Shown one piece after another: positions 6,296 to 49,471 of a DNA stretch of 59,915 nt. Within the stretch, counting starts at the first letter, position 1. Every line of letters begins with the position of its first letter. The stretch covers positions 1 to 59,915 of the forward strand of contig JAVBWN010000009.1 in NCBI GenBank assembly GCA_036677365.1, in the 5' to 3' direction. The notes under the pieces are model-generated. The model saw only the letters and a list, made by a program, of their open reading frames with translations. It did not search any database and had not been told where the DNA came from. The DNA comes from Acholeplasma sp. GTDB lineage: Bacteria > Bacillota_I > Bacilli_A > Acholeplasmatales > UBA5453. The translations under genes and the position numbers were made by a program.

Positions 6296-8665
6296 ATGGC
6301 ACTTAAAATTGGTGTGGGTGAGATGGTCTCTTTTTTATACGCTTCAGGCGATTTAACGGCAGAAACATTTCAAAATGTGTCTCAACTTGAAGGTATCAAA
6401 GCCCATCAACACATCCAAAGCAAGTATGGGTCGTTAGACCAAAAAGAAGTCAGTATCAAAACAACTTATGCCTATCAAGACGAAACCTATCTTTTACAGG
6501 GTCGAATGGATGGATTACTTCAATCTGATACACTTTGGATTGAAGAAATCAAATCGACTAGAAAAGATATTTTTGACTTGTTATTCATCCCCAACCTAGA
6601 ACACGAAGCCCAACTCAAAATATACGCTTTCATGTTTATGCACAATGAAGGCATCCCACAAATCGGTGGGCGATTGACTTATATTGAACTATCCAAATAC
6701 CAAACCAAAACGATCGAATACCAATTTGATTATGATTCATTGAAAGCCTTTTTTGAAGCATCCATCCTTGCTTATGGTAAGTGGTTGATTCAACTTGAAG
6801 CCCATTTAAAACTCAAAAAAGAAACCTTAGAAGCGATGAAATTCCCTTTTGATACTTACCGTCAAGGTCAACGTGATTTGATGAAACACGTCTACCATAC
6901 CATGAAACAAGAAGACATCTTATTCGCCATCGCACCCACCGGTATTGGTAAAACGATGGCGACCTTGTTTTCAACCTTTAAAGCCTTAACGGCTGACAAT
7001 GAAAAGATTTTTTATTGTACAGCGAAAAATCAAGGGAAGAAGGTTGCGATCGAATCGATGGCGACTTTGCACCAACAAGGGTTACAAACCAAAACGATTG
7101 AAATCACCTCGAAAGATGACATTTGTTTCTTAGAAAAACGCGATTGTGACCCAGAAAAATGTCCGTTTGCCAAAGGGTTCTTTGACCGATTATCGGTGGC
7201 GATGCAAGACATATTTACCAATGAATCACTGATGACCCGCAGTGTGATTGAAGCCTATGCTAAAAAACATACGATTTGTCCATTTGAGTTTTCTTTATTT
7301 GTATCTTATTACGTTGATTTGATCATTTGTGACTATAACTATGTATTTGACCCTAGAATTCATTTGGTCAGATACTTTGATGATGATACCTATAAACCCA
7401 AATTACTCATTGATGAAGCACACAACATGATTTCTAGGTCTAGAGACATGTTTTCAGCCTCCCTTTTAAAAAGCGATTTGATCACCTTAAGACGTGCAGG
7501 GTCAAAACTCAAACCAACGATCCGTGGGGCTGTCAATAAACTGATTGACCGTTTTGACCATTATGAAGCCGAACTCGAAGGTACCACATTTAAAAGCTAC
7601 CTACCAGTCGATATGACTTACTTAGACCTCGTTAGTAACCTCATGATGAAAATCACCAACGCGATTAAAGAAAATCCAAAGTATGGTAAGAAATCTGAGG
7701 TGATGGATGGCTACATGAAACTCCTCACACTGTCGGTGATTGCGGGTTATTACGATACACAGTTTAGGTTTAACATTACCAAATTTGAAGAAGATATCGA
7801 TATCACCATCCAATGTTTGGATGCGAGTACATTCATTAAATCCACACTCACCGATAAGACCTATGGGGCTGTATTCTTTTCTGCTACCTTGTATCCGATT
7901 GATTACTATCAAACCCTTTTATCCAAGGGGTTAGGTAACGTGGTTCAAATCCCATCACCTTTTGATCCAAATCACCTAAAAATCATGATCAATGACCGTG
8001 TGAATACCAGATACAAAGAAAGAGAAAACTCTTTAGCAGCCATTGTCCAATCGATTGAAACGGTGGTATCTTCAAAAATCGGGAACTATATCGCATTCTT
8101 TCCTTCCTATCAGTATTTGAATCAAGTAAAAGATGCGCTATCGAACACATTGAATGCCGATATTTTGGTTCAATCGAGACAAATGGATAGTACTGAACGC
8201 GACCACATCCTAAGCCGTTTCAAGAAAGACTTAACCCGCTCACAAATTGCATTTTTCGTCATGGGTGGGATGTTCGCTGAAGGGATTGATTATGTGGGTG
8301 ATATGCTTTCTGGGGTCATCATTGTGGGGGTAGGGTTACCGATGGTTAATGAACCCAACCAACAATTGAGGGCTTATTATGACGATACATTTAATCGGGG
8401 ATTTGATTATGCGTATACTTACCCTGGCATGAATAAAGTCATCCAAGCGGTCGGTAGAGTCATTAGAAGAGACGATGATTATGGGATTGCGTTACTGATG
8501 GACGATCGCTTCGTCACGCCTTTATACAAACGGTTGATGCCAAAGGAATGGCAAGCCAAAACCGTTGTTAGAACGGACAACTACTTAAATGATTTATTGA
8601 CAGAATTTTGGACTAAGATGGCACAAAAGTTTCCAAAAGAGCCCATCAAAGATGAAACAATATAG
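6296..8665 (+). CDS. DinG/Rad3 (XPD)-family Fe-S helicase with N-terminal PD-(D/E)xK nuclease domain
   Basis: GRMDG...EEIKS and QLKIYA nuclease motifs; APTGIGKT; Fe-S cysteines; IDEAHN; QAVGRVIR. Confidence 0.9.
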   Translation: MALKIGVGEMVSFLYASGDLTAETFQNVSQLEGIKAHQHIQSKYGSLDQKEVSIKTTYAYQDETYLLQGRMDGLLQSDTLWIEEIKSTRKDIFDLLFIPNLEHEAQLKIYAFMFMHNEGIPQIGGRLTYIELSKYQTKTIEYQFDYDSLKAFFEASILAYGKWLIQLEAHLKLKKETLEAMKFPFDTYRQGQRDLMKHVYHTMKQEDILFAIAPTGIGKTMATLFSTFKALTADNEKIFYCTAKNQGKKVAIESMATLHQQGLQTKTIEITSKDDICFLEKRDCDPEKCPFAKGFFDRLSVAMQDIFTNESLMTRSVIEAYAKKHTICPFEFSLFVSYYVDLIICDYNYVFDPRIHLVRYFDDDTYKPKLLIDEAHNMISRSRDMFSASLLKSDLITLRRAGSKLKPTIRGAVNKLIDRFDHYEAELEGTTFKSYLPVDMTYLDLVSNLMMKITNAIKENPKYGKKSEVMDGYMKLLTLSVIAGYYDTQFRFNITKFEEDIDITIQCLDASTFIKSTLTDKTYGAVFFSATLYPIDYYQTLLSKGLGNVVQIPSPFDPNHLKIMINDRVNTRYKERENSLAAIVQSIETVVSSKIGNYIAFFPSYQYLNQVKDALSNTLNADILVQSRQMDSTERDHILSRFKKDLTRSQIAFFVMGGMFAEGIDYVGDMLSGVIIVGVGLPMVNEPNQQLRAYYDDTFNRGFDYAYTYPGMNKVIQAVGRVIRRDDDYGIALLMDDRFVTPLYKRLMPKEWQAKTVVRTDNYLNDLLTEFWTKMAQKFPKEPIKDETI

Positions 8666-12639: not shown

Positions 12640-13775
12640 TGAGATTCTACGATTTAGACCACGCAGCAACCACGCAAATCCATCCCAAAGTGTTGGCAGC
12701 GATGATGCCTTATTTAACCGAATCCTATGGGAACCCATCCTCGATGCATACCCTTGGGATGCAAAACAAAAAAGACATCAATACCGCGAAAAAACACATC
12801 TCTTCGCTGTTGAAGTGTGATTTCAACGAATTGATTTTTACTGGTTCAGGCACCGAAGCCACCAACCTCGCGATCGAAGGGTATGCCAGAAAACACCCAC
12901 ATAAAACAGAAATCATCACGACACCCATCGAACACGCAGCCACATTAAATACCATCCGATACCTAGAAACATTAGGGTACAAGGTGCATTATTTAGAAGT
13001 AGATGCGATGGGTTATGTCTCATTAGCAGATTTAAAATCCAAACTAAATCAGAATACATTGCTGGTCAGTATCATCTGGGGAAACAATGAGTTAGGAACG
13101 ATTCAACCCATTGAAATGATGACAGAAATCATCCATCAACACGGGGCATGTTTTCATGTCGATGCCGTCCAAATGCTTGCACATAAACCGATGGACTTAT
13201 CCGTTTTAAATGTCGATATGATGTCATTTTCCGGTCATAAAATACACGGCCCTAAAGGCATCGGTTTGTTGTATAAAAAAAAGGAGATCGAGATCGAACC
13301 CCTCATCCATGGTGGCGGTCATGAATTCAAATACCGTTCTGGGACAGAAAACATCGCTGGTATCATCGGATTTGATCAAGCATTGACGCTTTTAAATGAT
13401 CAATATGACGATAAAGCGAAACACCTCACCGCTTTGGCATCCGCTTTTTACCATCAAATCCGTGCTATTTTACCAATACATCTGAATGGTCCAACGCTAA
13501 ATCAATCTAGAATCCCAGGGTTATTATCCTTATCGTTTGAAGGAATCTCTGGCTTAAAACTTCAATTCAAACTCAATCAAAAACAAATCTATGTATCCAC
13601 AGGAAGCGCATGTCATTCCAATGAGGTTGGGGTATCCCACGTCATTGAAGCGATTCATGCAAAATCCCCAGAAGGGGTCATTCGAATCAGTTTTGGAACT
13701 GAGACGACCTTAGAAGATATCCCGTATTTAGTTGACGCTTTCCAAACAGCGTATGACGACCTTAAAAATGATTAA
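12636..13775 (+). CDS. iscS: Cysteine desulfurase (IscS/NifS type)
   Basis: DHAATT, GNPSS, HVDAVQ, SGHKIHGPKG, STGSACHS. Confidence 0.92.
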   Translation: MMRFYDLDHAATTQIHPKVLAAMMPYLTESYGNPSSMHTLGMQNKKDINTAKKHISSLLKCDFNELIFTGSGTEATNLAIEGYARKHPHKTEIITTPIEHAATLNTIRYLETLGYKVHYLEVDAMGYVSLADLKSKLNQNTLLVSIIWGNNELGTIQPIEMMTEIIHQHGACFHVDAVQMLAHKPMDLSVLNVDMMSFSGHKIHGPKGIGLLYKKKEIEIEPLIHGGGHEFKYRSGTENIAGIIGFDQALTLLNDQYDDKAKHLTALASAFYHQIRAILPIHLNGPTLNQSRIPGLLSLSFEGISGLKLQFKLNQKQIYVSTGSACHSNEVGVSHVIEAIHAKSPEGVIRISFGTETTLEDIPYLVDAFQTAYDDLKND

Positions 13776-20195: not shown

Positions 20196-21374
20196 ATGGT
20201 AGACAATAAAGTTAAATGGGGAACATTCCTGTGGGATGTGTTCATGTGTTCGATAGGTTCATATGGTGGACCCGAAGCACACTATGGGGTATTTTCATCG
20301 GTTTTAGTTGAAAAGAAGAAATATTTGACCGAAGAAGAACTGACAGAAATGATTGGTTTATATGCTTTGGTCCCAGGACCGAGCAGTTCACAGACCATCA
20401 CTGCCATTGGATATCATGTGGGTGGACCTGTTTTAGCATTCTTAACATTCTTGGTATGGGCACTACCAGCCATCGTTATGATGGGTTTGATTGGCGTATT
20501 TTTCAGTCAACTAGACAATCATGAAGGGTGGAAACCCATCATTACCTTTTTACCAGCTGTCGCTGTAGGATTCATCATCTATGCTGCATTCACGTTATCG
20601 AAAAAAGTATTGAAAAAACGTAACGACTGGATTTTGTATGTCGTGATGCTGGCTGTGGGTTTATGGTTGGTGGGCTTATCGATGTGGGTAGTACCGATCA
20701 TGTTGGTGATAGGCGGACTCATCTATGTTTTCCCACACAGGAAAGAAAAAAGCATCCTTGAGGTTAAATTAAAACCAAGGTGGTATGTGTTGCTGATTGT
20801 CGTTGGTTTAGCATTATTCAATGAAGGTTTGAGGGTATGGATCACAGCCCCTTGGGTAACTTTGTATACATCCTTCTATCGTTATGGGTATTCTGTCATT
20901 GGTGGGGGACAAATTGTGATCCCATTGATGATTCAAGATTTGGTTCAAAATCAAACCCTGATCAGTTTACATGACTTCTTATCAGGGTATGCAATAGACC
21001 AAGCCATCCCTGGCCCACTCTTTAGTTTCGCAGCCTTTGTCAGTTCACGCTCATTTGCTGGCAGTGGTTTCTCATTCTTGGCTGGGATGATCGGTGGTTT
21101 CAGCATATTCTTACCAGGTATATTATTGGTATATTTTATCTACCCTTTATACCGTAATTCTAGAAAAATGATTCGTATGAAACATTTCTTAAAAGGTGTC
21201 ACAGTTACTGCAGCCAGCTTAATATTAATGACAGCCATCACACAGTCCATAAAACTCCCTATGGACTTCGCGGTATATGGGGTGGTCATCGTTTCAACTT
21301 TACTGTTGTTATGGAAGAAGATACCAGCACCACTCATTGTTGTTTTAGCGGCACTACTGGGGTTCATTTTGTAA
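20196..21374 (+). CDS. chrA: Chromate efflux transporter (long-chain CHR)
   Basis: Tandem GGP...PGP and GGG...PGP motifs. Confidence 0.88.
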   Translation: MVDNKVKWGTFLWDVFMCSIGSYGGPEAHYGVFSSVLVEKKKYLTEEELTEMIGLYALVPGPSSSQTITAIGYHVGGPVLAFLTFLVWALPAIVMMGLIGVFFSQLDNHEGWKPIITFLPAVAVGFIIYAAFTLSKKVLKKRNDWILYVVMLAVGLWLVGLSMWVVPIMLVIGGLIYVFPHRKEKSILEVKLKPRWYVLLIVVGLALFNEGLRVWITAPWVTLYTSFYRYGYSVIGGGQIVIPLMIQDLVQNQTLISLHDFLSGYAIDQAIPGPLFSFAAFVSSRSFAGSGFSFLAGMIGGFSIFLPGILLVYFIYPLYRNSRKMIRMKHFLKGVTVTAASLILMTAITQSIKLPMDFAVYGVVIVSTLLLLWKKIPAPLIVVLAALLGFIL

Positions 21375-21400
21375 GAAAGAATAAATTGATGATTGATAAT

Positions 21401-21424
21401 AACGGCTTAAATTGAGCCGTTTTT
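21401..21424 (+). terminator. AACGGCT-type hairpin/terminator at the left edge of the island
   Basis: AACGGCTTA-aat-TGAGCCGTTTTT. Confidence 0.7.
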
Positions 21425-21695
21425 ATCTTTATAAATCCTTCGAAATGAAGTTATGAATCAAATCAGAGTATATTATACAATTTCTTTGATTACAGATAGA
21501 TACCTATTTGTCAATTAGATGTGGTAATAATGATTTATTTATGCTAACATTAAAATATAAAGGACTCCTACGCTTAAACAAGAAAAGGTTTCTATTGGTT
21601 TTAAGGTAAAAATCTATGAATGTAAGCTTAAATCATATGATTCGACATAAATGATAATCCAAATCAAACCTAATTTCTAGATGGAGGATAGATTG

Positions 21696-22178
21696 ATGAG
21701 AAAAACGGTTTACATGATTGATGTTTCAAAAAAATACAACAAGAATTGGTATGAGTTTAAAGGAATTAGTGTTTCTGATATGTATTATATATTCAATAAA
21801 AAGTATAAAAACATATCTATATATTATGATATTCCAGATAATGATGATGGCGACTGCACTGTTAAATTTTCAGCTTTAAAGAAAAAGAAAATTAAATCTA
21901 GTTTTAAGTTTTCAAAAATTAAAAATACGAATACTGATGTCATGATCATTACTGATGGTGAAGCAAATCTATTTAACTACTCGCATCTAGAAGTATTTTG
22001 TTTAGCTAAACAACATCAGGAAATCATGACAGGAATAGCACTTTATATCAGTGTACACGATTTTGATTGGAATGCGTTTTGTTATTTCGCAACAGATGAC
22101 ATATTACAAGAGGTTATGGCATATATTAAAGAAAAAGCTCAACTTGTTATAACGGATGATTACTCGTATTTTAGTTAG
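21696..22178 (+). CDS. Hypothetical protein (island)
   Basis: GGAGG RBS before MRKTVY; 160 aa. Confidence 0.65.
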   Translation: MRKTVYMIDVSKKYNKNWYEFKGISVSDMYYIFNKKYKNISIYYDIPDNDDGDCTVKFSALKKKKIKSSFKFSKIKNTNTDVMIITDGEANLFNYSHLEVFCLAKQHQEIMTGIALYISVHDFDWNAFCYFATDDILQEVMAYIKEKAQLVITDDYSYFS

Positions 22179-22237
22179 TTAGCTGATTATTGGATAAAAC
22201 AATGGTTGACGGAGATTTTTTTTATCATGGTTTAACT

Positions 22238-22298
22238 TTTCTTACGATGAGTAATATACATGATAAGGCGTTTGATAATCGATTGAACTATTAAGATT
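22238..22298 (+). repeat. 61-bp direct repeat, copy 1
   Basis: 53/61 identical to 23535-23595 by manual alignment. Confidence 0.85.
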
Positions 22299-22485
22299 CG
22301 AATACGCAAAAAACGAAAGAGAAGCATTTAAAAAGGAATATGTATGGATGGTTGAGTATGGATACCATTCAAAAAAGAGTGATGTAGAGAATAGGACTCA
22401 CAATAAAATATGGTCACCAGGAAGAAATTATTATTTGATAGATAACAAAGGTAATTATTATCCAGGTGATTATTATGGAAGGTAA
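22297..22485 (+). pseudogene. Headless C-terminal stub of a probable nuclease toxin (GIY-YIG-like tail)
   Basis: FEYAKNEREAFKKEYVWM...THNKIWSPGRNYY...GR*; the TAA abuts the ATG of the LRR gene; no convincing start codon/RBS. Confidence 0.45.
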
Positions 22486-23457
22486 ATGGAGAACATGAGA
22501 AATTTTACAGAAAAAGACGGATTTAAATTTACATCTATCCATGGCTATAGCGGTGCATTGCTTAATCATGAAGCAATACTGATTAATAATAACGATATAA
22601 AAAGGCATGTTGAATATATCAATCAAAAAAAGCTAGAAAAAGTAGTCATTTACTTATTTGGCAGCGGAATAGAAGATTTAAATTTTTTAAAAGAAATACC
22701 CCACATCAAGTATCTTAAGATTTATAGTGATGGTAATAGGGATTTTTCGCCACTATATTATTTAACTGAACTGATTGGTTTAGCTCTGAGTAATGCGAGT
22801 GAACTATCATTAGAACCATTTAAAAAGTTAGAATTTTTTTCATCTGATAGAATTCATCTTATCAAAGACATCGATAAAGCAATCTCATTAAAAACATTGT
22901 CAATGGCAGATGTTTTGCATGAAATGAAAATAGAAGATTTAAGTATTTTATCTAATTTAACCAATCTCGATACTGTCTCAATCGGAGGATTAAAAATAAA
23001 AACACTCAAGGGTATTGAAAACTTAAAACGATTAAGAGTATTGTATCTTGCTGGTTTACCCTATTTAGATTCATTAACACCATTAACAGAACATCGAGAC
23101 ACTCTGACAAGTTTAGCAATTTATAGGTGTAGAAAGATATCTGATTTCACACCCATAGAATCATTATCTAGATTACAATTTTTAAAATTTGAGGACATGA
23201 GTAAAATAGATCATATCCACTTTATAAATGGCTTAAATAACTTAAAAACATTTATTTGTGACTCATGTAATATCATGGATGGAAACTTGAGTTCCCTCCT
23301 AAATCTAGAGTATGTAGGTATATATCCTAATCGAAAGCATTATTATGTGATTAAGTCAGGGAAAGAAGTAAGAGTGACATTATTTAATACATTTAAACGC
23401 AATATTCGCGTTACAGGTTATGAAGATATAGAGTTATGGAGACAATTTTCGCTTTAA
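22486..23457 (+). CDS. Leucine-rich repeat protein (candidate immunity protein)
   Basis: Repeated LxxLxxLxxLxL (LSILSNLTNLDTVSI, IENLKRLRVLYL, IESLSRLQFLKF); no signal peptide. Confidence 0.85.
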   Translation: MENMRNFTEKDGFKFTSIHGYSGALLNHEAILINNNDIKRHVEYINQKKLEKVVIYLFGSGIEDLNFLKEIPHIKYLKIYSDGNRDFSPLYYLTELIGLALSNASELSLEPFKKLEFFSSDRIHLIKDIDKAISLKTLSMADVLHEMKIEDLSILSNLTNLDTVSIGGLKIKTLKGIENLKRLRVLYLAGLPYLDSLTPLTEHRDTLTSLAIYRCRKISDFTPIESLSRLQFLKFEDMSKIDHIHFINGLNNLKTFICDSCNIMDGNLSSLLNLEYVGIYPNRKHYYVIKSGKEVRVTLFNTFKRNIRVTGYEDIELWRQFSL

Positions 23458-23534
23458 TGTATTGAGATATTTCATTAGTTGAGTTTTAATCTTAGTGGAC
23501 CTCTGTCAAGAAAGTGGACACACTAAGTATGACA

Positions 23535-23595
23535 TTTCTTACTTTAAGTAATTCACTTGATAAAGCGTTTGATAATCGAATGAACTATTAAGATT
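23535..23595 (+). repeat. 61-bp direct repeat, copy 2
   Basis: 53/61 identical to 22238-22298. Confidence 0.85.
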
Positions 23596-23738
23596 TGTAT
23601 GATTTATCTGGTGTTCCATTTTAAAATCAGAATGGTGCTAGAGCAACTTACTTAAAAGTAGGAACTCTTTGGAGTATCGTGGATTATGAATATTATTTAT
23701 GGCATGACAAAAAAGAGTTTTTATTAGGGGGTTAGATT

Positions 23739-24200
23739 ATGAGTTTTGATTATAATGAATATTATCATGCATTAGTTTTAAGTCCTGCAATCTTTTTAGC
23801 ATTTGGATTAGTTATTACCGTTTTAGGTGTAATTTTCCAAATCAAACCTCAACTAATGCCTCGAAAGATTAAAGAACAGTTCAAATTTGCAGGCTTATTA
23901 ATATCACTACTGGCACTTCTAATTTCTCTTTTTGTGGTTACAACTACAAGTCATTTTTCTTTGATACATGATAAAGAGGAACAAGTTATAGAAACGAATG
24001 GTACTATAACTAAGATGTACTTTGATCGGTATCATATGAAAATGTATTATGAAAATGAGTATGTGAACCCAATGTATATCGTTATCAATGATAAAACTTA
24101 TTACATAATGACTATTGGCGATTTTGAGGTTGGTGATGAAGTAACGATTGATTATTTACCCAAATCCATGATCATAATGAACATTGAAACCAAAGAATAA
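23739..24200 (+). CDS. 2-TM protein with C-terminal beta (OB-like) domain; paralog of 26351-26914
   Basis: YNEY N-terminus; INDKTYYIMTIGDFEVGDEVTIDYLPKS. Confidence 0.75.
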   Translation: MSFDYNEYYHALVLSPAIFLAFGLVITVLGVIFQIKPQLMPRKIKEQFKFAGLLISLLALLISLFVVTTTSHFSLIHDKEEQVIETNGTITKMYFDRYHMKMYYENEYVNPMYIVINDKTYYIMTIGDFEVGDEVTIDYLPKSMIIMNIETKE

Positions 24201-24209
24201 ACATCCTGA

Positions 24210-24837
24210 TTTGGATATTTAAATAGCATAAGATTACAACGGTTAAGATTTATTAGTGCAGATGGCATACTTGGTGAAACAGGAAATCTATTAAACCAAA
24301 ATATGTATGCATATGCTGGTAATAATCCGGTTATGAATGTTGATCCTAATGGAGATTCATTTTTATCAATATTAATCGAGATAACCGCAACAATGCTCAC
24401 AGTAGGACTAATGTCTGATGCACCAGCAGATGAACACTCGGAAGATAATGTAACTGTATCAGGTGGAGCATCACCAATTCCATCAGTATTTGGTATTGAA
24501 ATTTTTGGTTTATGTGTTAGCTAATTTTGGATTAGAAGGTACTTCATGCAATGCTGTAGGTGTTTGTCAAGGTTACCATCAAGTTGGTTTTCAAATTATA
24601 AAAATTGGAGCTAGTTACACAGAATATTATGACGGTAACAACTCATTATCGTTCTCAGTTGGAATATTATATCTATCAGTGAATAACAGAAATTACTTTG
24701 ATATTGATTCATGGGGGGGCGGAGTATCCTTCAGTTTTATGAATGGAACCCCTGGTGGAGGAATATCCGGATCAATTGACATAGACATTATCGGTTTACT
24801 TCGAGATTTACGAGATGCAGTGAAAAAAGGTGATTAG
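24210..24837 (+). pseudogene. Orphan Rhs C-terminal cassette (end of core plus variable CT), frameshifted
   Basis: YLNS...RFISADGILGETGNLLNQNMYAYAGNNPVMNVDPNG is the Rhs core terminus (PxxxxDPxG). The frame stops at 24524 and continues in the overlapping frame to 24837. Confidence 0.85.
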
Positions 24838-24839
24838 TC

Positions 24840-25286
24840 ATGATGAATGAAAAAGAAGTTGATGAATTAGATACTATTTTGCGTTATAAGAAAAGTATAA
24901 ATATAGACTCATATTTTACTTTTGTTTTGGCTATTATTTTAATAATATTATCGGCTATCCTTTCAAAAATTATTGGAGTACGAATTCAGTATTTCGAATT
25001 TCCAATAATAATATTGGCTTTATTTCAAAATATCGCACAAGATTTTATGTTTCATAGAAGTATCGGTAAGAGAATTTATAGACTTAAAATTGTTACAAAC
25101 ATAGACTCCAAAAAGAAACTTTTTAAAGCACTGGTCATGCGAAAATTTTATGAATCTACTTATATTCCATTAATTAACAAGGACTTTGCTGCTATAGTTA
25201 ACATGATAGAAGCGATGACTGAAACTAAAATCGTGGACGATATAAAAAACAAGACCAATAAAGTGAGAGGAAATGAAATACTATGA
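24840..25286 (+). CDS. RDD-like membrane protein, probable cognate immunity of the Rhs-CT
   Basis: Two TM segments then SIGKRIYRLKIV (RDD-like); starts 2 nt after the Rhs-CT stop. Confidence 0.6.
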   Translation: MMNEKEVDELDTILRYKKSINIDSYFTFVLAIILIILSAILSKIIGVRIQYFEFPIIILALFQNIAQDFMFHRSIGKRIYRLKIVTNIDSKKKLFKALVMRKFYESTYIPLINKDFAAIVNMIEAMTETKIVDDIKNKTNKVRGNEIL

Positions 25287-25804
25287 GATTATTTCGCGTT
25301 TTAGAAGAAGAATATATCACTGATGAACCTCTGGATGAATTTATTGAAAGACTATCTAATGCCACAGATAGACATATGAAAATCAGACTACTCATGAAAA
25401 ATATGGATCAATCAAAACTATTTTATGGTTATGTGGATCGGACTAGTTTTGATATCATTCGTTATATCACACATGGTAATTCATTCAATCCAGTAATCTC
25501 AGGATCATTATCAACAAGTTATGATAAAACAAAAATTAATCTCATCTATCACATAGACAAGGGTATTAAATCATTTATTTACGCACTATGGGTATTCATG
25601 TTTCTATTCTTCATAGCTTTATTAGCGATAGATCTATATAACATAATGAATAATGAATTTAGTCTATACAACCTTCTACTAGTATTTATGTTCATTATGA
25701 GCGTGTTCATTATCAAGTTTGGGTATTCTTTAGATTTTGAAGCTACTAGAACCACGATGAGAAGATTTATTAATCAAGAATTTAATCATGAGCAACATCA
25801 TTAA
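25283..25804 (+). CDS. Hypothetical membrane protein
   Basis: 173 aa, two C-terminal TM segments, ATGA overlap with the previous gene. Confidence 0.7.
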   Translation: MRLFRVLEEEYITDEPLDEFIERLSNATDRHMKIRLLMKNMDQSKLFYGYVDRTSFDIIRYITHGNSFNPVISGSLSTSYDKTKINLIYHIDKGIKSFIYALWVFMFLFFIALLAIDLYNIMNNEFSLYNLLLVFMFIMSVFIIKFGYSLDFEATRTTMRRFINQEFNHEQHH

Positions 25805-25852
25805 TCATACCCAGTCATTATGGTAGGGTTAAAACATATAAGAGGTGATATA

Positions 25853-26122
25853 GTGAATAAAACGATTGTAACTTTTGGCCTTAGATCGATAATAACATTC
25901 TTAATTGGAACAGTATTTTTATCATTCGCTTTATTCCAGTTAATGAATCGAAATGATCCAATACGTTTTGTTTTCATACCACTGTTCACTTATCTCTATA
26001 TTGTCGTCATTTTTATGTCATTTAGCCATGTACGATTTAAACAAGATTGTTTCATCATTCGTGGTGATTTTGGTATAAGGAAAGACCAAATTCAAAAAAG
26101 AGCTAAAATTTTAGTTATATAG
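25853..26122 (+). CDS. Small membrane protein, possibly truncated
   Basis: GAGGTG RBS, GTG start, two TM segments then a short beta region that ends abruptly. Confidence 0.5.
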   Translation: MNKTIVTFGLRSIITFLIGTVFLSFALFQLMNRNDPIRFVFIPLFTYLYIVVIFMSFSHVRFKQDCFIIRGDFGIRKDQIQKRAKILVI

Positions 26123-26350
26123 TCGTGCATTTATTGGCAGTCATCACGAGCATTATTGCTGTGTAAACTTCATATTTTTATTATATTAGCCATAAAAATT
26201 GGAATATTAATCTTAAAAATATTTACTTGAATCATTACGACTGGCACCATCGGTTGAACAATCACATTCGATAACTACTATATTGACTCAATACACATTA
26301 ACTATCATACATAATGAACTCAGTTAAATAACAAAAAAATGGAGGACCAA

Positions 26351-26914
26351 ATGGAATTTTTATACAATGAATATTTTACTAATTTATTTGTTATACCATT
26401 TGTAATGTGTGTCATTTCAATTTCACTCATGTTAGGCTTAATAATTCACAACGTACTTGCAAAAAGACCCTTAACAATTAAGTTTAAGATACACTTGATA
26501 ATTTCATTATTTGTCATTATTCTATTGCTAATAGTTTCAGTATCCTCGTTAAAACATGGTGTAAAATTGTTAAAAGATGATAAGAATAGTGTAATTATGA
26601 TCGAAGGGGAAATTGAAAAGATTGAAAAAGTTGTATTTTCACCACGCTACATGTATAACGATAGAGTGGTATTTGCAAAAATAATAACGATTAATGGTGA
26701 AAAATACTATTGTATGACAGTTGGAGATTTATCTATAGGCGATTATGTAGAAGTATCATATCTGGAAAATAGCCGATTAATCATAAAAATTGATCATTAT
26801 GATGTTATGACCCGCGCAGGAACTTATTGGATGGATGGTAAAATACAACCTATTGCTCGTGGAATAACAAGAGGATTCTGGAACGATTTTGAAGAGACAT
26901 ACTTAAATGGATGA
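26351..26914 (+). CDS. 2-TM plus OB-like protein; paralog of 23739-24200
   Basis: GGAGG RBS; YNEY; INGEKYYCMTVGDLSIGDYVEVSYLENS. Confidence 0.75.
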   Translation: MEFLYNEYFTNLFVIPFVMCVISISLMLGLIIHNVLAKRPLTIKFKIHLIISLFVIILLLIVSVSSLKHGVKLLKDDKNSVIMIEGEIEKIEKVVFSPRYMYNDRVVFAKIITINGEKYYCMTVGDLSIGDYVEVSYLENSRLIIKIDHYDVMTRAGTYWMDGKIQPIARGITRGFWNDFEETYLNG

Positions 26915-26946
26915 TGAGGTTTTTCGATTAATGAAAAGGAGAAAGC

Positions 26947-27411
26947 ATGAGTCCAATTGATAGAATCAAAAAAGAATATTACGCAACATTAGTCATAGAT
27001 TTATTCGTTTTAATTGTATCATTCATGGCAATGGTATGGTCACTTATCGACGATTTTGAAGTACCAAATTATGACATTGAAGCAATTATACGTGTTGTCT
27101 TCCTTCCGTTTACATGTTTCTTTTTAATAGTTGTGTTTACGCATTTTCTCGTAAAACTATTAAAAGACTTTAAACAAATACGTTCAAATAATTATAAGCA
27201 ACTGATTGGAAGAGTTGTAGGGTTTGCTAAAAACCAAACAGAAACAGGCAACCAAATTAATAATTTTCCAAAGATTTATATAAGAGAAACTAAAAAAACA
27301 ATAGAACTCCATGTTAGTGATCATGTTAATTTAAATCAAGAATATACTTTTTTGTATCTAGAACACACGAGAATCGGAGCTGTGAAGTGTGAAGAGGTTG
27401 ATGATAAGTAA
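26947..27411 (+). CDS. 2-TM protein with beta-rich C-domain (possible distant third member of the same architecture)
   Basis: AAGGAG RBS; KEYY, two TM segments, GRVVG...YTFLYLEHTRI. Confidence 0.7.
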   Translation: MSPIDRIKKEYYATLVIDLFVLIVSFMAMVWSLIDDFEVPNYDIEAIIRVVFLPFTCFFLIVVFTHFLVKLLKDFKQIRSNNYKQLIGRVVGFAKNQTETGNQINNFPKIYIRETKKTIELHVSDHVNLNQEYTFLYLEHTRIGAVKCEEVDDK

Positions 27412-27454
27412 TAATGAAATATGGAATTTGATAAATCCATAGAAAGAGGCCCAT

Positions 27455-28297
27455 ATGGGAGCATGGGGTACAGGATTATATTCAGATGATATCGCACAAG
27501 ATGTTAAATTTTTATACAAAGAATTATTAATGGTAGGATTATCAAATGAAGAAGCGACCCAAAAACTAATCAAAGATAGCCAATGGTTGATCAATGATAT
27601 GTATGATGGTCCTGTGTTTTGGTTTGTTTTAGCGGATACACAATGGAAATTAGGTAGATTACTACCTGAAGTTAAAGAAAAAGCAGTGAAATACATTCAG
27701 GACGGAGAACATCTAAAAATATGGTTAGAAGAAAATCCTAAATTAGGATTAAAGAGAAAAGAAGTCTTGGATAAATTAGTAAATCAACTGAACTCTCCAA
27801 TGCCAGAAAAGAAGAAGATATCTCCTTATAAATACTACCGAAATGATTGGAAGTTGGGCGATACATACGCATACCAGTTAAGTGGAGATTTCGCTAAAGA
27901 AAACGGTCTTGATGGTAGATATATTATCATTCATAAAATCGGTGATCATGATTTTAATAAAGGAATGGATAAGGATGTTTTTCCTATTGTTTATATGAAA
28001 ATCACACCAGATAAGAATCTTCCGAAGAATGTCAATGAAATAGAAGCATGTGATTATATTAGAATTGATCGAAACTTTGACGATAAAAAGTTTGAGTATA
28101 GATCGTTTCTTTGGGAAACATCCAATAGATTCTACAATCATTTGATTTACCTTGGTAATTATTCTATTACACCACCGAATGATGAATGTACAACGAGATA
28201 TTATGGATTAATTTCAACTAAGCTATCTGATTATCGAAATAAAGAAATCCGTATAAAGAATTACTTTGAAAACAAGGATTATACATTTGGGAATTGA
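27455..28297 (+). CDS. DUF4259-like N-domain plus Imm26-like C-domain (candidate immunity protein)
   Basis: MGAWGTGLYSDDIAQD start; FWFVLADTQWKLG; WKLGDTYAYQL. Confidence 0.65.
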   Translation: MGAWGTGLYSDDIAQDVKFLYKELLMVGLSNEEATQKLIKDSQWLINDMYDGPVFWFVLADTQWKLGRLLPEVKEKAVKYIQDGEHLKIWLEENPKLGLKRKEVLDKLVNQLNSPMPEKKKISPYKYYRNDWKLGDTYAYQLSGDFAKENGLDGRYIIIHKIGDHDFNKGMDKDVFPIVYMKITPDKNLPKNVNEIEACDYIRIDRNFDDKKFEYRSFLWETSNRFYNHLIYLGNYSITPPNDECTTRYYGLISTKLSDYRNKEIRIKNYFENKDYTFGN

Positions 28298-28470
28298 ATA
28301 TTTATGTGTTCTTAATAAAAGATGTGATTATCTAATTTACTAAGAATTTTAACCATAAAAGATTTAATATATCTATTTTTTAAAATTGAAGATAGTTAAT
28401 GGAAACATTGATAGACTAACATATTAAAACGTTATAACCTTATTTAAGACTTTCATACTAAAAAAACTAT

Positions 28471-28494
28471 AAAACGGCTTTTTTAAGCCGTTTT
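28471..28494. repeat. Second copy of the ssrA-downstream hairpin
   Basis: AAAACGGCTT-tttt-AAGCCGTTTTATT is nearly identical to 28986-29012, including flanks. Confidence 0.7.
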
Positions 28495-28627
28495 ATTCTT
28501 TTTGCGAAGATTAAGTAGTTTGAATACGAATGAGAAACACAATTATTATTGTTATTATGTGGGTGATGATTTTATTTGATATTTTTATATTTTAAATATT
28601 TTTATGTAAGTATTTCTTTTAAAAATT

Positions 28628-28646
28628 AAGGCCAAAACAAGGCCAA
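28628..28646 (+). repeat. Tandem 11-bp-period repeat AAGGCCAA (integrase arm-type-like)
   Basis: AAGGCCAA at 28628 and 28639. Confidence 0.45.
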
Positions 28647-28922
28647 GTTGCACTAATCTTGAAAGATCCATTAATTAATTTACTCCTTAAACAACAGTGT
28701 ACAGGAACAATACTAGCTAGTATTGATAAAAAATCATTTTTAGATATCCGTTTGCCTGTAATAAAAAGTGATTATTTAAGTGAAATAAAAAGCAACTATA
28801 AATTAGCTGATTCTTTATATATATAATCACAAAAACTATTAGATAAATTGATTGTTATTATTGATGATTCTATAGAGTTATGTGAATCGGACGTCGAAAA
28901 AAGATTGGATTCGCTTCTATAG
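28647..28922 (+). pseudogene. C-terminal remnant of a type I R-M specificity subunit (HsdS-like)
   Basis: LLLKQQCTGTILASIDKKSFLDIRLPVI...*SQKLLDKL...SIE; in-frame TAA at 28824; no start. Confidence 0.6.
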
Positions 28923-28985
28923 CTTTGAGTATTGATTTTTGTGATAATTAAGTCTTTTTTAAGTATATCGCCTATAAAAAATATT

Positions 28986-29009
28986 AAAACGGCTTAGTTA
29001 AGCCGTTTT
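28986..29009 (-). terminator. tmRNA terminator hairpin
   Basis: AAAACGGCTT-agtt-AAGCCGTTTT, about 10 nt past the ssrA CCA. Confidence 0.75.
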
Positions 29010-29018
29010 ATTTCGTCT

Positions 29019-29366
29019 TGGTGGAGATGAGGGGAGTCGAACCCCTGTGCATGATTTTTCCTGTGATACTTTCTACATGTTTAGTCAATCCGTTATATTC
29101 ATCCAGCAATCATAGATTGACATATTATCACTAGACTAACCTTATTGATTCATTTGATTGCTTAAGGTGGCAACAACCAAATATATCTTACTGTTTTGTG
29201 CCTTAGACTAAGTCGTAAGAAAACCTAGCGTTGGCTCGCACTTTTTCTTAAGCAGCGAATTGTAAATTTTGGTTTCCGGTTATTAATAACCTCGGTGTTT
29301 TTACTTGCACAACCAAGACATGCTTATATCACATTTAAAACCCTGACGAATCCAGAGAACATCCCC
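29019..29366 (-). ncRNA. ssrA: tmRNA; tag peptide (A)GNQNLQFAA* at 29277-29248
   Basis: 5' GGGGATG, 3' GGTTCGACTCCCCTCATCTCCACCA tRNA-Ala-like end; ATAACC|GGA resume context; tag ends in FAA. Confidence 0.95.
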
Positions 29367-46314: not shown

Positions 46315-47245
46315 AGGATAAAATATCTAAATAAGTTAAGGAAGAAACGTGTGTCCACGTTTCTTTTTTATTGTAGTCAAACTGCTTTAAGTATTGAATT
46401 ACTTCATTGGTCACTTTGGTTGGGGTAGAAGCACCTGAGGTTACCGATACCGATTGAGCGGTTTTGAACCATGCTGGGTCAATGTCGGATACGCCTTCGA
46501 CACGGTAACTTGGGATATTACGTTCATGGGTGGATACGAAGGCGAGTTTGTTAGAATTGGAAGATAACGCGTCCCCAACCACGATACAAAGATCAACCAA
46601 AGGTTGTTCAATCACCGCTTGTTGTCTGGTTGTGGTGGCGTCACAAATATCGTCATCAAACAATAAATCCGGGTATTTAATTTTCAAAACATTCAATACC
46701 ACATCGATATCGTAGCGTGATAATGTCGTTTGATTCGTGACAAACAATGGTTTGTCTGGGTATTTTTGGGTAAAATTCAGCGCGTCCACCGCGTTGGTCA
46801 AAAACGAAATTTCTTCAGATATCCCCAAAATACCTTCAGGTTCTGGGTGGTTTTTATGTCCGATATAGACAATTTCATAACCCAAGTTTAAGTGCTTTTT
46901 AACCGCGTCATGAACTTTGCTGACGTCTTTACAAGTGGCGTTAACGATGGTTAATCCCTTGGCTTTGGCTTTTTCAATGACTTGATCGGATACCCCATGG
47001 GCGGTCATGATGACTGTCCCTGAGGTAATATCATCCAATAACGCCAGCCTGGTTTTATTTGGATTATCCAATGAAATGACACCAAAATGTCTAAACGCCT
47101 CGGTTATTTTTTTGTTATGTACAATTAAACCCAAAATGTGGATGGGTCTTGGATATTGATCATCTTCAATGGTCTTTTTGACCATATGGAGTGCTTTAGC
47201 TACCCCGTGACAGTAGCCTCTTGGACGTAAATCTATGACATTCAT
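46313..47245 (-). CDS. ispH: 4-hydroxy-3-methylbut-2-enyl diphosphate reductase
   Basis: GYCHGV, IVHN, TAHG, ATC, ICDATTTRQ, SSNS, GASTP. Confidence 0.96.
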   Translation of the reverse strand: MNVIDLRPRGYCHGVAKALHMVKKTIEDDQYPRPIHILGLIVHNKKITEAFRHFGVISLDNPNKTRLALLDDITSGTVIMTAHGVSDQVIEKAKAKGLTIVNATCKDVSKVHDAVKKHLNLGYEIVYIGHKNHPEPEGILGISEEISFLTNAVDALNFTQKYPDKPLFVTNQTTLSRYDIDVVLNVLKIKYPDLLFDDDICDATTTRQQAVIEQPLVDLCIVVGDALSSNSNKLAFVSTHERNIPSYRVEGVSDIDPAWFKTAQSVSVTSGASTPTKVTNEVIQYLKQFDYNKKETWTHVSSLTYLDILS

Positions 47246-47339
47246 GGTATCACCTGTGATTATTATAACAAACAACCGGTTTAAATTCTAACATTAGGTA
47301 TAAACGACAAAATAGAGTATAATATAAACGGTGATTTTT

Positions 47340-48584
47340 ATGTTTAAAACAAGTATACAAGAAAAAATAAATGCATTGGGTTACAAGACGTTCACACCGA
47401 TTCAAGAAGCGGTTTTTAAGTCTTACCCTAAAGAGAAGCACATCATTGGATTGGCACCGACAGGCACTGGGAAAACCCATGCGTACTTATTGCCAATCAT
47501 CAATGATTTGGATTTGGCTTATGAAGCTGTACAAGCAGTCATTTGTGTGCCTACCAACGAGTTGGTTGCACAAGTTGAAACGATGTTAAAAAGCGTCAAT
47601 ATTGGTTTTACTGTGAAAGCATTGACGACCTCTAAAGACCGTTTAAGAGAATTGGATGCTTTATCCAAAAAACAACCTCAAATCGTCATTTCTACCCCAG
47701 GCAGATTGGAAGATTACGCGATTCAAGAAGGTAAATTGAAAATCCATACAGCCAAAGTTTTCGTTTTAGATGAAGCAGACATGATGCTCGACATGGATTT
47801 CATGACCACATTAGACCGTGTCTTTTACGCTGTAAGGGATGCGAAAATGATGTTATTCTCAGCGACTTTACCTGAAGGTTTAACCAAATGGATTGACACT
47901 TATTTTGGTAAAGCATTCATGATCGATTTGAAAGACCCTTCCGTTTTAAAAATAACCCATGGTTTGGTCTATACCCGATTTGAGACAAGAGACCACGATT
48001 TTAAACGATTGGTCAAAGCCATCAACCCATACTTATGCATGGTGTTTGTCTCTAAAAAAGAACAGGTTGACCATGTCTATCAACAACTTTTAGATGTGGG
48101 TATCAAAGCGATTCGAATCTCTGGGGATACCCCATCGAGAGAAAGAAAAACCATTTTAGATGACATCAAACAATTAAAGTATACCTACATTGTGTCATCT
48201 GATTTGGGGTCACGTGGTTTAGACATCATCGGTGTTTCTCACGTCATTCACTATGAATTACCATACCACCTAGAATATTACATCCACCGTTCAGGTCGAA
48301 CTGGTAGAGCCAATCAAACGGGTATTTCATATGCACTAGTAACCAATGAAAATTCTCGAAAAATTGAAAATTTGGTCAAAAAAGGCATCACATTCCAACG
48401 TTATCAATTCGATGGTGATTCATTGGTACCAATCATTAAAAAGCCTAAGAGCAGCCTCTCTGAAGAAGAATTAGCAGCGATCCGTAAAGTCAAAAAACCA
48501 ACCAAAGTATCCCCCAACTATAAGAAGAAAAATAAGAAATTGGTGAAAAAAGCACGTAACGCCGTGCGATTTGGAGGTAAATAA
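47340..48584 (+). CDS. cshB: DEAD-box RNA helicase (CshB-like)
   Basis: TPIQ, PTGTGKT, DEAD, SAT, RGLD, HRSGRTGR; adjacent to nfo as in Bacillus. Confidence 0.85.
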   Translation: MFKTSIQEKINALGYKTFTPIQEAVFKSYPKEKHIIGLAPTGTGKTHAYLLPIINDLDLAYEAVQAVICVPTNELVAQVETMLKSVNIGFTVKALTTSKDRLRELDALSKKQPQIVISTPGRLEDYAIQEGKLKIHTAKVFVLDEADMMLDMDFMTTLDRVFYAVRDAKMMLFSATLPEGLTKWIDTYFGKAFMIDLKDPSVLKITHGLVYTRFETRDHDFKRLVKAINPYLCMVFVSKKEQVDHVYQQLLDVGIKAIRISGDTPSRERKTILDDIKQLKYTYIVSSDLGSRGLDIIGVSHVIHYELPYHLEYYIHRSGRTGRANQTGISYALVTNENSRKIENLVKKGITFQRYQFDGDSLVPIIKKPKSSLSEEELAAIRKVKKPTKVSPNYKKKNKKLVKKARNAVRFGGK

Positions 48585-49471
48585 TGTTAAAAATCGGTTC
48601 ACATGTCGGACTATCCGGCAATGATATGTATGAAGGTTCTGTGTTGGAAGCCATCAGTTATGGTGCAAATGCATTCATGGTCTACACAGGTGCCCCACAA
48701 AACACCATTCGCAAATCCTTGATGGATTTGAATATTGCTGGCGCAGAAAAACAAATGCTCGCCCATGGGTTGTCGTTTGATAATGTCGTGGTTCACGCGC
48801 CTTATATCATCAATCTAGCCAACCCTGACCCTGAAAAACGCGCCTTCGCTGTGGAATTTTTAACCAAAGAAGTAGAACGCACCTACGCGATGCACGTGAG
48901 ACAAATCGTTTTACACCCTGGGTCTGCTGTTGGAAAAGATAGGGATGAAGCCTTAAAATGGATTGCGGAGGGCGTCAACCAAGTCATTCAAAATACGGCA
49001 GAAAAACCTGTCAAAATCGCTTTAGAAACCATGGCTGGTAAAGGCAATGAAATGGGTAAAACATTTGAAGAAATCCGCGATATGATTGCTTTGATTAAAG
49101 ATAAGAGCCGCATTTCTGTTTGTTTTGACACGTGTCACACCTCAGATGCAGGTTATGATATTCAAAATGATTTTGAAGGGGTCATCCAACACTTTGATCG
49201 CGTGGTTGGTAAATCCTACATATCGGTTTTCCACGTCAACGATTCTAAAAATCCAAAAGGGGCAGCGAAAGACAGACACGCCAACTTAGGATTTGGTGAA
49301 ATCGGCTTTGATGCTTTGTTAAAAGTGATTTATCATCCCGATTTTGAGCATGTGCCTAAAATATTAGAAACCCCATACATCGACGATAAAGCCCCTTATA
49401 AACATGAGATTCAAATGATCAAAAACCAAACCTTTAATCCGAATTTAGAGTCAGATGTGAAAAATAGTTGA
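48584..49471 (+). CDS. nfo: Endonuclease IV
   Basis: HAPYIINL, ETMAGKG, DTCH, HVNDSK, DRH, ETP. Confidence 0.96.
   Translation: MLKIGSHVGLSGNDMYEGSVLEAISYGANAFMVYTGAPQNTIRKSLMDLNIAGAEKQMLAHGLSFDNVVVHAPYIINLANPDPEKRAFAVEFLTKEVERTYAMHVRQIVLHPGSAVGKDRDEALKWIAEGVNQVIQNTAEKPVKIALETMAGKGNEMGKTFEEIRDMIALIKDKSRISVCFDTCHTSDAGYDIQNDFEGVIQHFDRVVGKSYISVFHVNDSKNPKGAAKDRHANLGFGEIGFDALLKVIYHPDFEHVPKILETPYIDDKAPYKHEIQMIKNQTFNPNLESDVKNS

Follow-up and report, generated by a model that had tools for sequence, protein, structure and literature searches.

We have analysed a 59,915-nt contig of a draft Acholeplasma sp. genome (GenBank JAVBWN010000009.1; hereafter the window), in which an AT-rich block at 21.4-28.3 kb is set between the chromate transporter gene chrA and the transfer-messenger RNA (tmRNA) gene ssrA. 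This block is probably a decayed, headless array of orphan Rhs toxin/immunity modules, kept as a defensive set of immunity genes. Homologues of its genes A, B, D, E and I lie directly 3' of Rhs-type toxins in other genomes. Pairs of a C-terminal toxin domain (CT) and a small gene, of which only a remnant of the toxin survives here, are found elsewhere: the third toxin stub with gene D is intact in a congener, and the family of the first stub occurs together with the family of gene B at ten of ten loci.

The genome under study (G000, of which the window is contig C9) comprises 1.97 Mb in 37 contigs with a completeness rating of 99.86%; G-numbers denote the genomes and L-numbers the loci with which it was compared. 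The named loci nearest to its ChrA are those of a Bacillota metagenome-assembled genome (MAG; 98%), Paracholeplasma vituli (82%), two Acholeplasmataceae MAGs (77% and 74%) and Acholeplasma laidlawii (66%). G000 gave no match to the transpeptidase family PF00905 or to FtsW/RodA (PF01098), searches that were positive in 10 of 14 control genomes, and its sole Mur_ligase_M match, a 429-aa frame, is taken as a candidate FolC. The ChrA neighbours and the missing PF00905 and PF01098 together support the assignment to a wall-less member of the Acholeplasmataceae, as had been proposed in an earlier reading of the letters alone (the sequence-only reading).

The island between chrA and ssrA

That reading had described nine same-strand genes in an AT-rich block beside ssrA. 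All nine small open reading frames (ORFs), A to I, lie on the + strand at 21681-28297, where GC is 0.25-0.32; in 1-kb windows from 21001 to 29000 it is 0.253-0.321, compared with about 0.35-0.43 elsewhere and about 0.39 in the flanks. To the left lie a major facilitator superfamily (MFS) transporter gene and chrA (PF02417, E 1.6e-56), and ssrA on the - strand forms the right border. Three start-less, stop-to-stop frames (22279-22485, 23625-23735 and 24210-24837) end 0, 3 and 2 nt ahead of the ATGs of B, C and D, much as first noticed. A purine-rich, Shine-Dalgarno-like motif precedes eight of the nine ORFs, F being the one that lacks it, and these motifs set the start of A at 21696 (alternative 21681) and that of G at 26351 (alternative 26339). 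A simple hydropathy scan showed two hydrophobic segments in each of C, D, E, F, G and H and none in A, B or I. An Rfam search of the island returned nothing besides the tmRNA. The features are as follows (2-TM, with two transmembrane segments; LRR, leucine-rich repeat; AF2, AlphaFold2; dN/dS, ratio of nonsynonymous to synonymous substitution rates).

21375-21680, + strand: left junction, a terminator-like site with the chrA terminator-like hairpin (21401-21421) and a non-coding leader
21696-22178, + strand: gene A, soluble protein of 160 aa bearing an HDFDW motif, immunity candidate
22190-22303, + strand: repeat copy 1, apparently what is left of a decayed ankyrin-repeat immunity gene at its 3' end
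22294-22485, + strand: stub 1, final ~60 aa of a predicted Rhs-borne toxin domain, N-terminal half gone
22486-23457, + strand: gene B, LRR protein (PF12799), candidate cognate immunity protein for the stub-1 toxin family
23505-23600, + strand: repeat copy 2, junction element and apparent ankyrin-gene 3' remnant
23625-23735, + strand: stub 2, putative, a 36-aa headless frame with its stop 3 nt before the ATG of C
23739-24200, + strand: gene C, 2-TM protein, paralogue of G
24210-24837, + strand: stub 3, truncated Rhs core end and hydrophobic glycine-rich CT, with a frameshift near 24511 and core homology from 24246
24840-25286, + strand: gene D, 2-TM immunity candidate for the stub-3 CT, with a homologue in G015 behind an intact CT
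25283-25804, + strand: gene E, immunity candidate, two hydrophobic segments near the C-terminus, own toxin stub missing here
25820-26122, + strand: ORF F, doubtful 100-aa 2-TM ORF without a Shine-Dalgarno-like motif
26351-26914, + strand: gene G, 2-TM protein, paralogue of C (dN/dS 0.33)
26947-27411, + strand: gene H, 2-TM protein with a C-terminal beta-rich domain (dN/dS 0.31-0.44)
27455-28297, + strand: gene I, soluble 280-aa immunity candidate for GIY-YIG-like Rhs CTs (AF2 pLDDT 90.8)
28469-28496, either strand: bidirectional terminator-like hairpin, a copy of the hairpin at 28985-29010 adjoining ssrA
29019-29366, - strand: tmRNA gene ssrA, right border

Toxin families associated with the island genes

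Gene B matches LRR_4 (PF12799) at 35.7 bits (cut-off 27), and its description as an LRR protein holds. A search over 399 scored genomes of the class found B matches in 20; ten homologues are full-length, share 31-44% identity with B and come from five GTDB families. In all ten cases the upstream ORF consists of a core-end motif, a hydrophobic linker and a CT of ~110 aa resembling that of P0001, a 190-aa protein that opens with the Rhs core-end motif and was the single match in a search for longer proteins carrying stub 1. Stub 1 ends with its stop right against the ATG of B and shares 84% identity with the C-terminus of P0001. Within the P0001-like domain it corresponds to the C-terminal ~60%, and the half bearing the GxYxIxF...YVGKG motifs is absent. 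Because all ten B homologues follow a P0001-like CT, and stub 1 aligns there, B is predicted to pair with a conserved toxin family, and stub 1, as judged from sequence, is a real toxin remnant. The P0001-type domain has no Pfam match, and a profile of stub-1-type CTs gave no significant PDB match. Among the ten upstream toxin copies one is frameshifted (L067, G495) and one internally deleted (L069, G593); at both of these loci an intact LRR immunity gene stands behind a damaged toxin, which is the decay pattern of the window. A kinship of the stub-1-type CT to the GIY-YIG-like CTs described below was considered and rejected (hhalign probability 0.24%), the GIY-YIG-like order of motifs being an impression only.

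Stub 3 had been recognised in the sequence-only reading as the end of an Rhs core. It can be read in two frames, 24210-24524 and 24454-24837, which overlap at 24454-24524, and the first of these matches TIGR03696 (Rhs_assc_core) at 32.1 bits (E 1.2e-7, cut-off 32.5), or at 32.7 bits with its in-frame neighbours. The stub thus begins inside the conserved core end; stubs 1 and 2 carry no core end. At locus L020 of G015, a 2096-aa Rhs gene comes first, then an immunity-type gene, a headless orphan together with its own gene, and a second orphan (12849-13475) of 209 aa in a single frame, which is 82% and 74% identical in protein sequence to the two halves of stub 3. A homologue of D (59% identical) lies directly 3' of this second orphan CT, and nucleotide identity between stub 3 plus D and the corresponding G015 pair is 80% over 996 nt. 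Contigs of three public sequencing runs carry 2 extra nt at 24511/24512, which suggests that the frameshift is particular to this strain or to its assembly. In three runs the contigs also extend upstream of 24246 as Rhs core sequence with loose ends, and the stub-3 CT would therefore be found on longer Rhs genes in nature. The RDD-like label given to D was not sustained, PF06271 reaching a sub-threshold 17.5 bits (cut-off 24.1).

Gene I has more than 233 homologues, and a source gives two of them the name DUF4259. No Pfam family matches the window protein at E <=0.1; in a set of 17 family members DUF4259 (PF14078) is matched weakly by two (best E 0.001) and Imm26 (PF15428) by none, which leaves a faint likeness to DUF4259 from the earlier label of DUF4259/Imm26-like. 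In G010 (L026) a homologue of I, 44.5% identical, starts 4 nt past a 2068-aa Rhs gene. Matches to I were found in 15 genomes when 400 scored genomes of the phylum were searched, and 14 loci outside G000 and G008 were classified by their upstream context. At five of them the upstream ORF carries the core-end motif and, stopping just short of the I homologue, a domain of the pattern YxVYxL...YVG...R...H...E; fragments of this GIY-YIG-like domain are present at two more, a YD-repeat fragment at one, and no toxin-like sequence upstream at the other six. A profile of six such CTs searched against PDB gave SLX1 (E 0.0025), then T4 endonuclease II, UvrC and I-TevI; nearly all of the 11 PDB matches listed are GIY-YIG proteins, with individually weak scores. 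The Pfam GIY-YIG family matches one I-associated CT (E 0.013). The AF2 model of I found no Foldseek match in PDB at E <=0.001, and VIA-wide with the same model returned only generic helical-repeat entries (Z <=7.5, residues 10-118).

Homologues of A and E are also found next to Rhs sequences. Fifteen homologues of A in a representative library align from M6, and two full-length copies were found in 400 scored genomes of the class. The homologue in L054 (G626) lies directly behind an ORF with an Rhs core end, within an orphan array, and that in L053 lies behind an ORF with a similar hydrophobic C-terminus. The AF2 model of A (pLDDT 86.8) had no Foldseek PDB match at E <=0.001. E', a homologue with 42% identity to E, is directly behind a 357-aa headless Rhs stub with another CT in L015 (matches in L028 are identical to those in L015, and the pair was counted once). 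A check proposed with the sequence-only reading was whether homologues of these genes follow polymorphic toxins; they do so for B at 10 of 10 loci and for A, D, E and I at at least one locus each.

The 2-TM proteins C and G are paralogues, as had been suggested (33% identity over 152 aa, E 3e-13). A homologue of G with 66% identity is present in the ssrA-side island of G008 (L024), where G, H and I are found together beside two more toxin stubs. Homologues of H occur in the chrA/ssrA-side islands of G008 (94% identical in protein sequence) and L015 (68%), in L021 an Rhs stub precedes a gene distantly related to H (27% over 75 aa), and an ESM Atlas search with H returned unnamed clusters only. 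The tail of G (26795-26911) was tried as a fourth stub and rejected, its matches being the G008 copy and one at chance level. A further check proposed with that reading was whether the stubs have toxin homologues: they exist for stubs 1 and 3, but stub 2 had no match in 200 other genomes of the order.

Cassette borders, strain variation and the missing Rhs gene

A 74-nt repeat stands at two cassette borders (22230-22303 and 23527-23600, 82% identity over 74 nt), and a further copy occurs in G008 (L024 10375-10451). Over its final 28 nt it shares 96% identity with the end of the ankyrin-repeat gene that stands behind a full-length Rhs gene in G008, and its 3' part also matches an ankyrin gene in the G015 array. 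Copy 1 further resembles the preceding ~80 nt of the G008 ankyrin gene, with frame shifts. The 5' part of copy 2 recurs in G008 ahead of a truncated Rhs stub (L021) and in the ssrA-side island. A 16-nt match made the 5' half of the repeat a tentative candidate for an IS3-family inverted repeat. The matches to ankyrin-gene 3' ends mark the repeat as the apparent 3' remnant of an immunity gene that recurs at cassette borders, rather than as an attC-like site.

The content of the locus varies among relatives, as had been predicted for an island of this kind; it differs in L015, P. vituli, G008 and contigs of public runs. The flanks of L015 are 98% identical to the window in nucleotide sequence (dS about 0.054), but its chrA-ssrA content is different: an Rhs stub, E', H', I' and an IS66 fragment. 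At the left junction 21400-21561 is 96% identical to L015 8356-8517, past which L015 enters its Rhs stub and the window enters gene A. P. vituli (L017) has unrelated genes between chrA and ssrA, and no island homologues were found beside ssrA in G007 and G012; the contigs of G009 and G014 stop too early for this comparison. Relative to L015, H and I are 77% and 88% identical in nucleotide sequence against 98% for the flanks; relative to G008, H is 97% identical against 81% for the flank. This discordance between cassettes and flanks indicates that cassettes move between lineages, as far as nucleotide identities can tell. In run X5, contigs connect 22303 with 24856 and 24346 with 27413; in run X15 they connect 25231 with 22491 across 30 other letters. 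The order of cassettes therefore differs among environmental strains.

Other differences were noted around the borders. A 0.55-kb segment between the two hairpin copies (28430-28982), which holds a 67-aa open frame without a family match, is replaced by 32 other letters in a run X5 contig. In L015 the MFS transporter gene upstream of chrA is cut to its first 37 and last 41 codons (6905-7148), and IS66-type sequences adjoin ssrA in both L015 and G014. In G008 an element (L024 10580-18130) separates the immunity island from ssrA. Copies of the same terminator-like sequence mark its borders, and it encodes a tyrosine integrase (PF00589, E 1.9e-20) together with a repressor-like protein and a candidate AbiH-like one.

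Rhs-type conflict in a wall-less lineage had been inferred from the window, and the family bears this out: the Rhs core is present in 9 of 22 genomes of the GTDB family (G000 included) and in seven of nine other genomes of the genus, with open Rhs frames of 2096, 2038, 2068 and 2268 aa in the three congeners G015, G008 and G010. Two full-length Rhs proteins that were scanned contain RHS_repeat (E 1.9e-20 and 1.6e-16) and DUF6531, and the full-length relatives open with what reads as a signal-peptide-like N-terminus and not a type VI secretion system (T6SS) adaptor. Within 70 residues past the core-end motif, 19 of 22 distinct Rhs CTs have a hydrophobic 19-aa window (Kyte-Doolittle mean >=1.6); this set (L015, L020-L032, L038-L048 and window 24354-24521) includes nuclease-like CTs and covers this clade only.

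In G000 itself no full-length Rhs gene was found in the window or the genome, in keeping with what had been said of the window, nor any RHS_repeat above cut-off or any LXG. Its Rhs cores are two, both headless: stub 3 and C6:38715-39620. The latter, a 302-aa stub (TIGR03696, 76.9 bits), belongs to a second orphan locus (C6:36800-41000), where it is accompanied by a following 168-aa ORF and several small membrane ORFs; the locus is related to a larger three-stub array of G008 (L021). At C6:47.2-49.0 kb (47200-49030), a position occupied in G008 and G010 by a full-length Rhs gene with its immunity gene, G000 shows a scar. The scar keeps the upstream flank up to the Rhs start, a 65-nt ankyrin-gene end (89% identical) and the downstream flank, and these retained parts indicate that the full-length Rhs gene was, in all appearance, lost or replaced there. 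Two lipoprotein-like ORFs lie inside the scar.

The proposed origin of the array and its alternatives

It is proposed that the array grew as recombination, using the conserved core end and the recurring ankyrin-gene remnant, added module upon module, and that deletions then trimmed it. The surviving genes would neutralise the corresponding toxins of Acholeplasmataceae living nearby. Nuclease-like CTs would be the targets of the soluble A, B and I, and hydrophobic, glycine-rich CTs, which probably act on membranes, those of the 2-TM proteins C, D, E, G and H. The strain would thus be disarmed yet still protected, as in orphan-immunity islands. Several observations weigh against this proposal. 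Identities to the toxin-adjacent homologues are modest (D 59%, I 44.5%, E 42%, B 31-44%), which makes cross-protection uncertain; C, G and H have no verified cognate toxin; and apart from one partial match to F, neither stub 2 nor F has any homologue beyond itself. The copy of I in G008 is frameshifted, and orphans therefore do decay. The dN/dS of the stub-3 CT (0.28-0.39) is similar to that of the island genes, and such a sum over a long divergence is no proof of present-day constraint. A promoter scan of the island found 32 sites, fewer than the 55.5 in shuffles. An RNA library (X15) yielded contigs on stub 3 and on parts of B, C, D, G, H and I, though on none of the chrA bins, but this is a hint only, as RNA libraries can hold DNA and contigs give neither strand nor level. 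Finally, a draft in 37 contigs could still hide a rhs gene.

Were the block instead a pure relic, its small genes would be leftovers of a lost Rhs locus that are merely not yet degraded and bring no present benefit. The truncated toxin parts, one of them frameshifted, would fit such a history, as would the broken G008 copy of I, the spurious look of F and the loss of full-length Rhs from G000. Yet eight ORFs are intact and preceded by Shine-Dalgarno-like motifs when all toxin parts are broken. The dN/dS of D (0.28), E, G, H and I spans 0.23-0.44, against 0.11-0.26 for the flanks, and speaks against a relic; the near-identity of H with its G008 copy in a far more diverged flank implies recent transfer of an intact gene; and the X15 contigs on B, C, D, G, H and I but not on chrA bins point weakly the same way. 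We consider a relic unlikely. Far less probable is a capture system of the rAID-1 or integron type, in which insertion of immunity cassettes at recurring intergenic sites would be the work of a dedicated recombinase. The low GC and shared direction of the small genes, an intergenic repeat present twice with a third copy in G008, and a cassette order that varies among samples would all suit it, but none of the six PF00589 matches of G000 is on this contig, the repeat is explained as an immunity-gene remnant, and the G008 integrase near ssrA is part of a separate element with repressor and Abi-like genes.

A role as a reservoir for toxin switching, with orphan modules kept to recombine into the main rhs gene and so change the toxin deployed, has an equally slight chance of being correct. 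Orphan modules in Rhs and contact-dependent growth inhibition (CDI) loci are reported to serve toxin switching, which we counted in its favour, together with the 101 nt of core end that stub 3 retains (97% identical to the L015 stub) and the orphans that stand behind the main genes of congeners. G000, however, has no main rhs gene to recombine with, and in stubs 1 and 2 the core end is gone along with at least half of the CT. The array looks like a decayed, displaced Rhs orphan array and not like a dedicated capture device, and its retention as a defensive immunity set is the reading that we hold to be probable.

A broader hypothesis can be put forward only tentatively, and we regard it as possible though doubtful: Rhs warfare in this group would take place across naked membranes, a hydrophobic helix past the core-end motif inserting or carrying the toxin, many payloads acting on membranes and being countered by 2-TM immunity proteins, and weapon-less strains living on a traded library of immunity genes. 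If this were true, defence of the acquired interbacterial defence (AID) type would have arisen independently of T6SS, of Bacteroidales and of any dedicated recombinase. A question of delivery is raised in any case, namely how a Sec-exported Rhs toxin enters when attacker and target expose only membrane.

Comparison with known orphan and immunity systems

The findings would extend Rhs toxin-immunity systems, and immunity islands without toxins, to a wall-less lineage. They also offer candidate pairings: an LRR protein family with a toxin domain of ~110 aa unmatched in Pfam, the I family, weakly similar to DUF4259, with GIY-YIG-like CTs, and 2-TM proteins with hydrophobic CTs. A literature search pairing Acholeplasma with polymorphic toxins found no report, although supplements of large toxin surveys may list such genes; papers retrieved for Acholeplasma with Rhs or immunity protein deal, by title and abstract, with unrelated topics, and the literature found on polymorphic toxins of Mollicutes concerns Spiroplasma, as far as the portions available go.

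Orphan rhs-CT/rhsI arrays of Enterobacteria, produced by 'C-terminal displacement', and orphan cdiA-CT/cdiI modules are established systems. The island shares with the rhs-CT/rhsI arrays headless fragments that start in the core end (PxxxxDPxG region) and continue into a variable CT with a small gene next to it, modules in tandem, strain-variable content and low GC. Unlike those arrays, it has no main rhs gene in its genome, while the homologous G015 cassette does follow one; two of its three stubs lack the core end; its host is a wall-less member of the Acholeplasmataceae; and the full-length relatives begin with a signal-peptide-like sequence and not with a T6SS adaptor. WapA is the type of Rhs toxin found in Bacillus subtilis. 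The Rhs proteins of the congeners resemble it in their RHS repeats, DUF6531, core, polymorphic CT and adjoining immunity gene and in having no T6SS context; they differ in that there is no cell wall to anchor to or cross, and in the strongly hydrophobic segment with which 19 of the 22 CTs open. WapA of Streptococcus suis is likewise described as an Rhs toxin of Bacillota in the available part of its report (PMC12704120).

Immunity genes without toxin genes have been described for a T6SS immunity islet of Salmonella Typhi, according to the part of that paper at hand (PMC7400221). The island likewise keeps immunity-type genes in the absence of cognate toxin genes; going by the same part of the source, it differs in its secretion route and gene families and in being a much larger array. 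The AID clusters of Bacteroidales, and their recombinase-associated form rAID-1, were the systems to which the sequence-only reading had likened the island. In the accessible text of the defining work, rAID-1 comprises a tyrosine recombinase that resembles XerD and lies 5', with at least 44% identity to that of B. fragilis, followed by at least two co-directional, low-GC genes downstream and integron-like repetitive intergenic sequences (10.1101/471110). Measured against that text, the island has co-directional, low-GC orphan immunity genes, matching toxins missing from the genome and signs of horizontal exchange in common with AID and rAID-1. It holds no XerD-like recombinase, the six PF00589 matches of G000 lying on other contigs, and no mobile-element genes; toxin remnants are present, the toxins are of Rhs type and not T6SS effectors, and the lineage is another one. 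The intergenic repeat, with two copies here, is better explained as a gene-end remnant. For want of the defining recombinase the island does not belong to rAID-1, and 'rAID-like' in the earlier reading holds only as a functional analogy; in function the island would most resemble the AID clusters of Bacteroidales.

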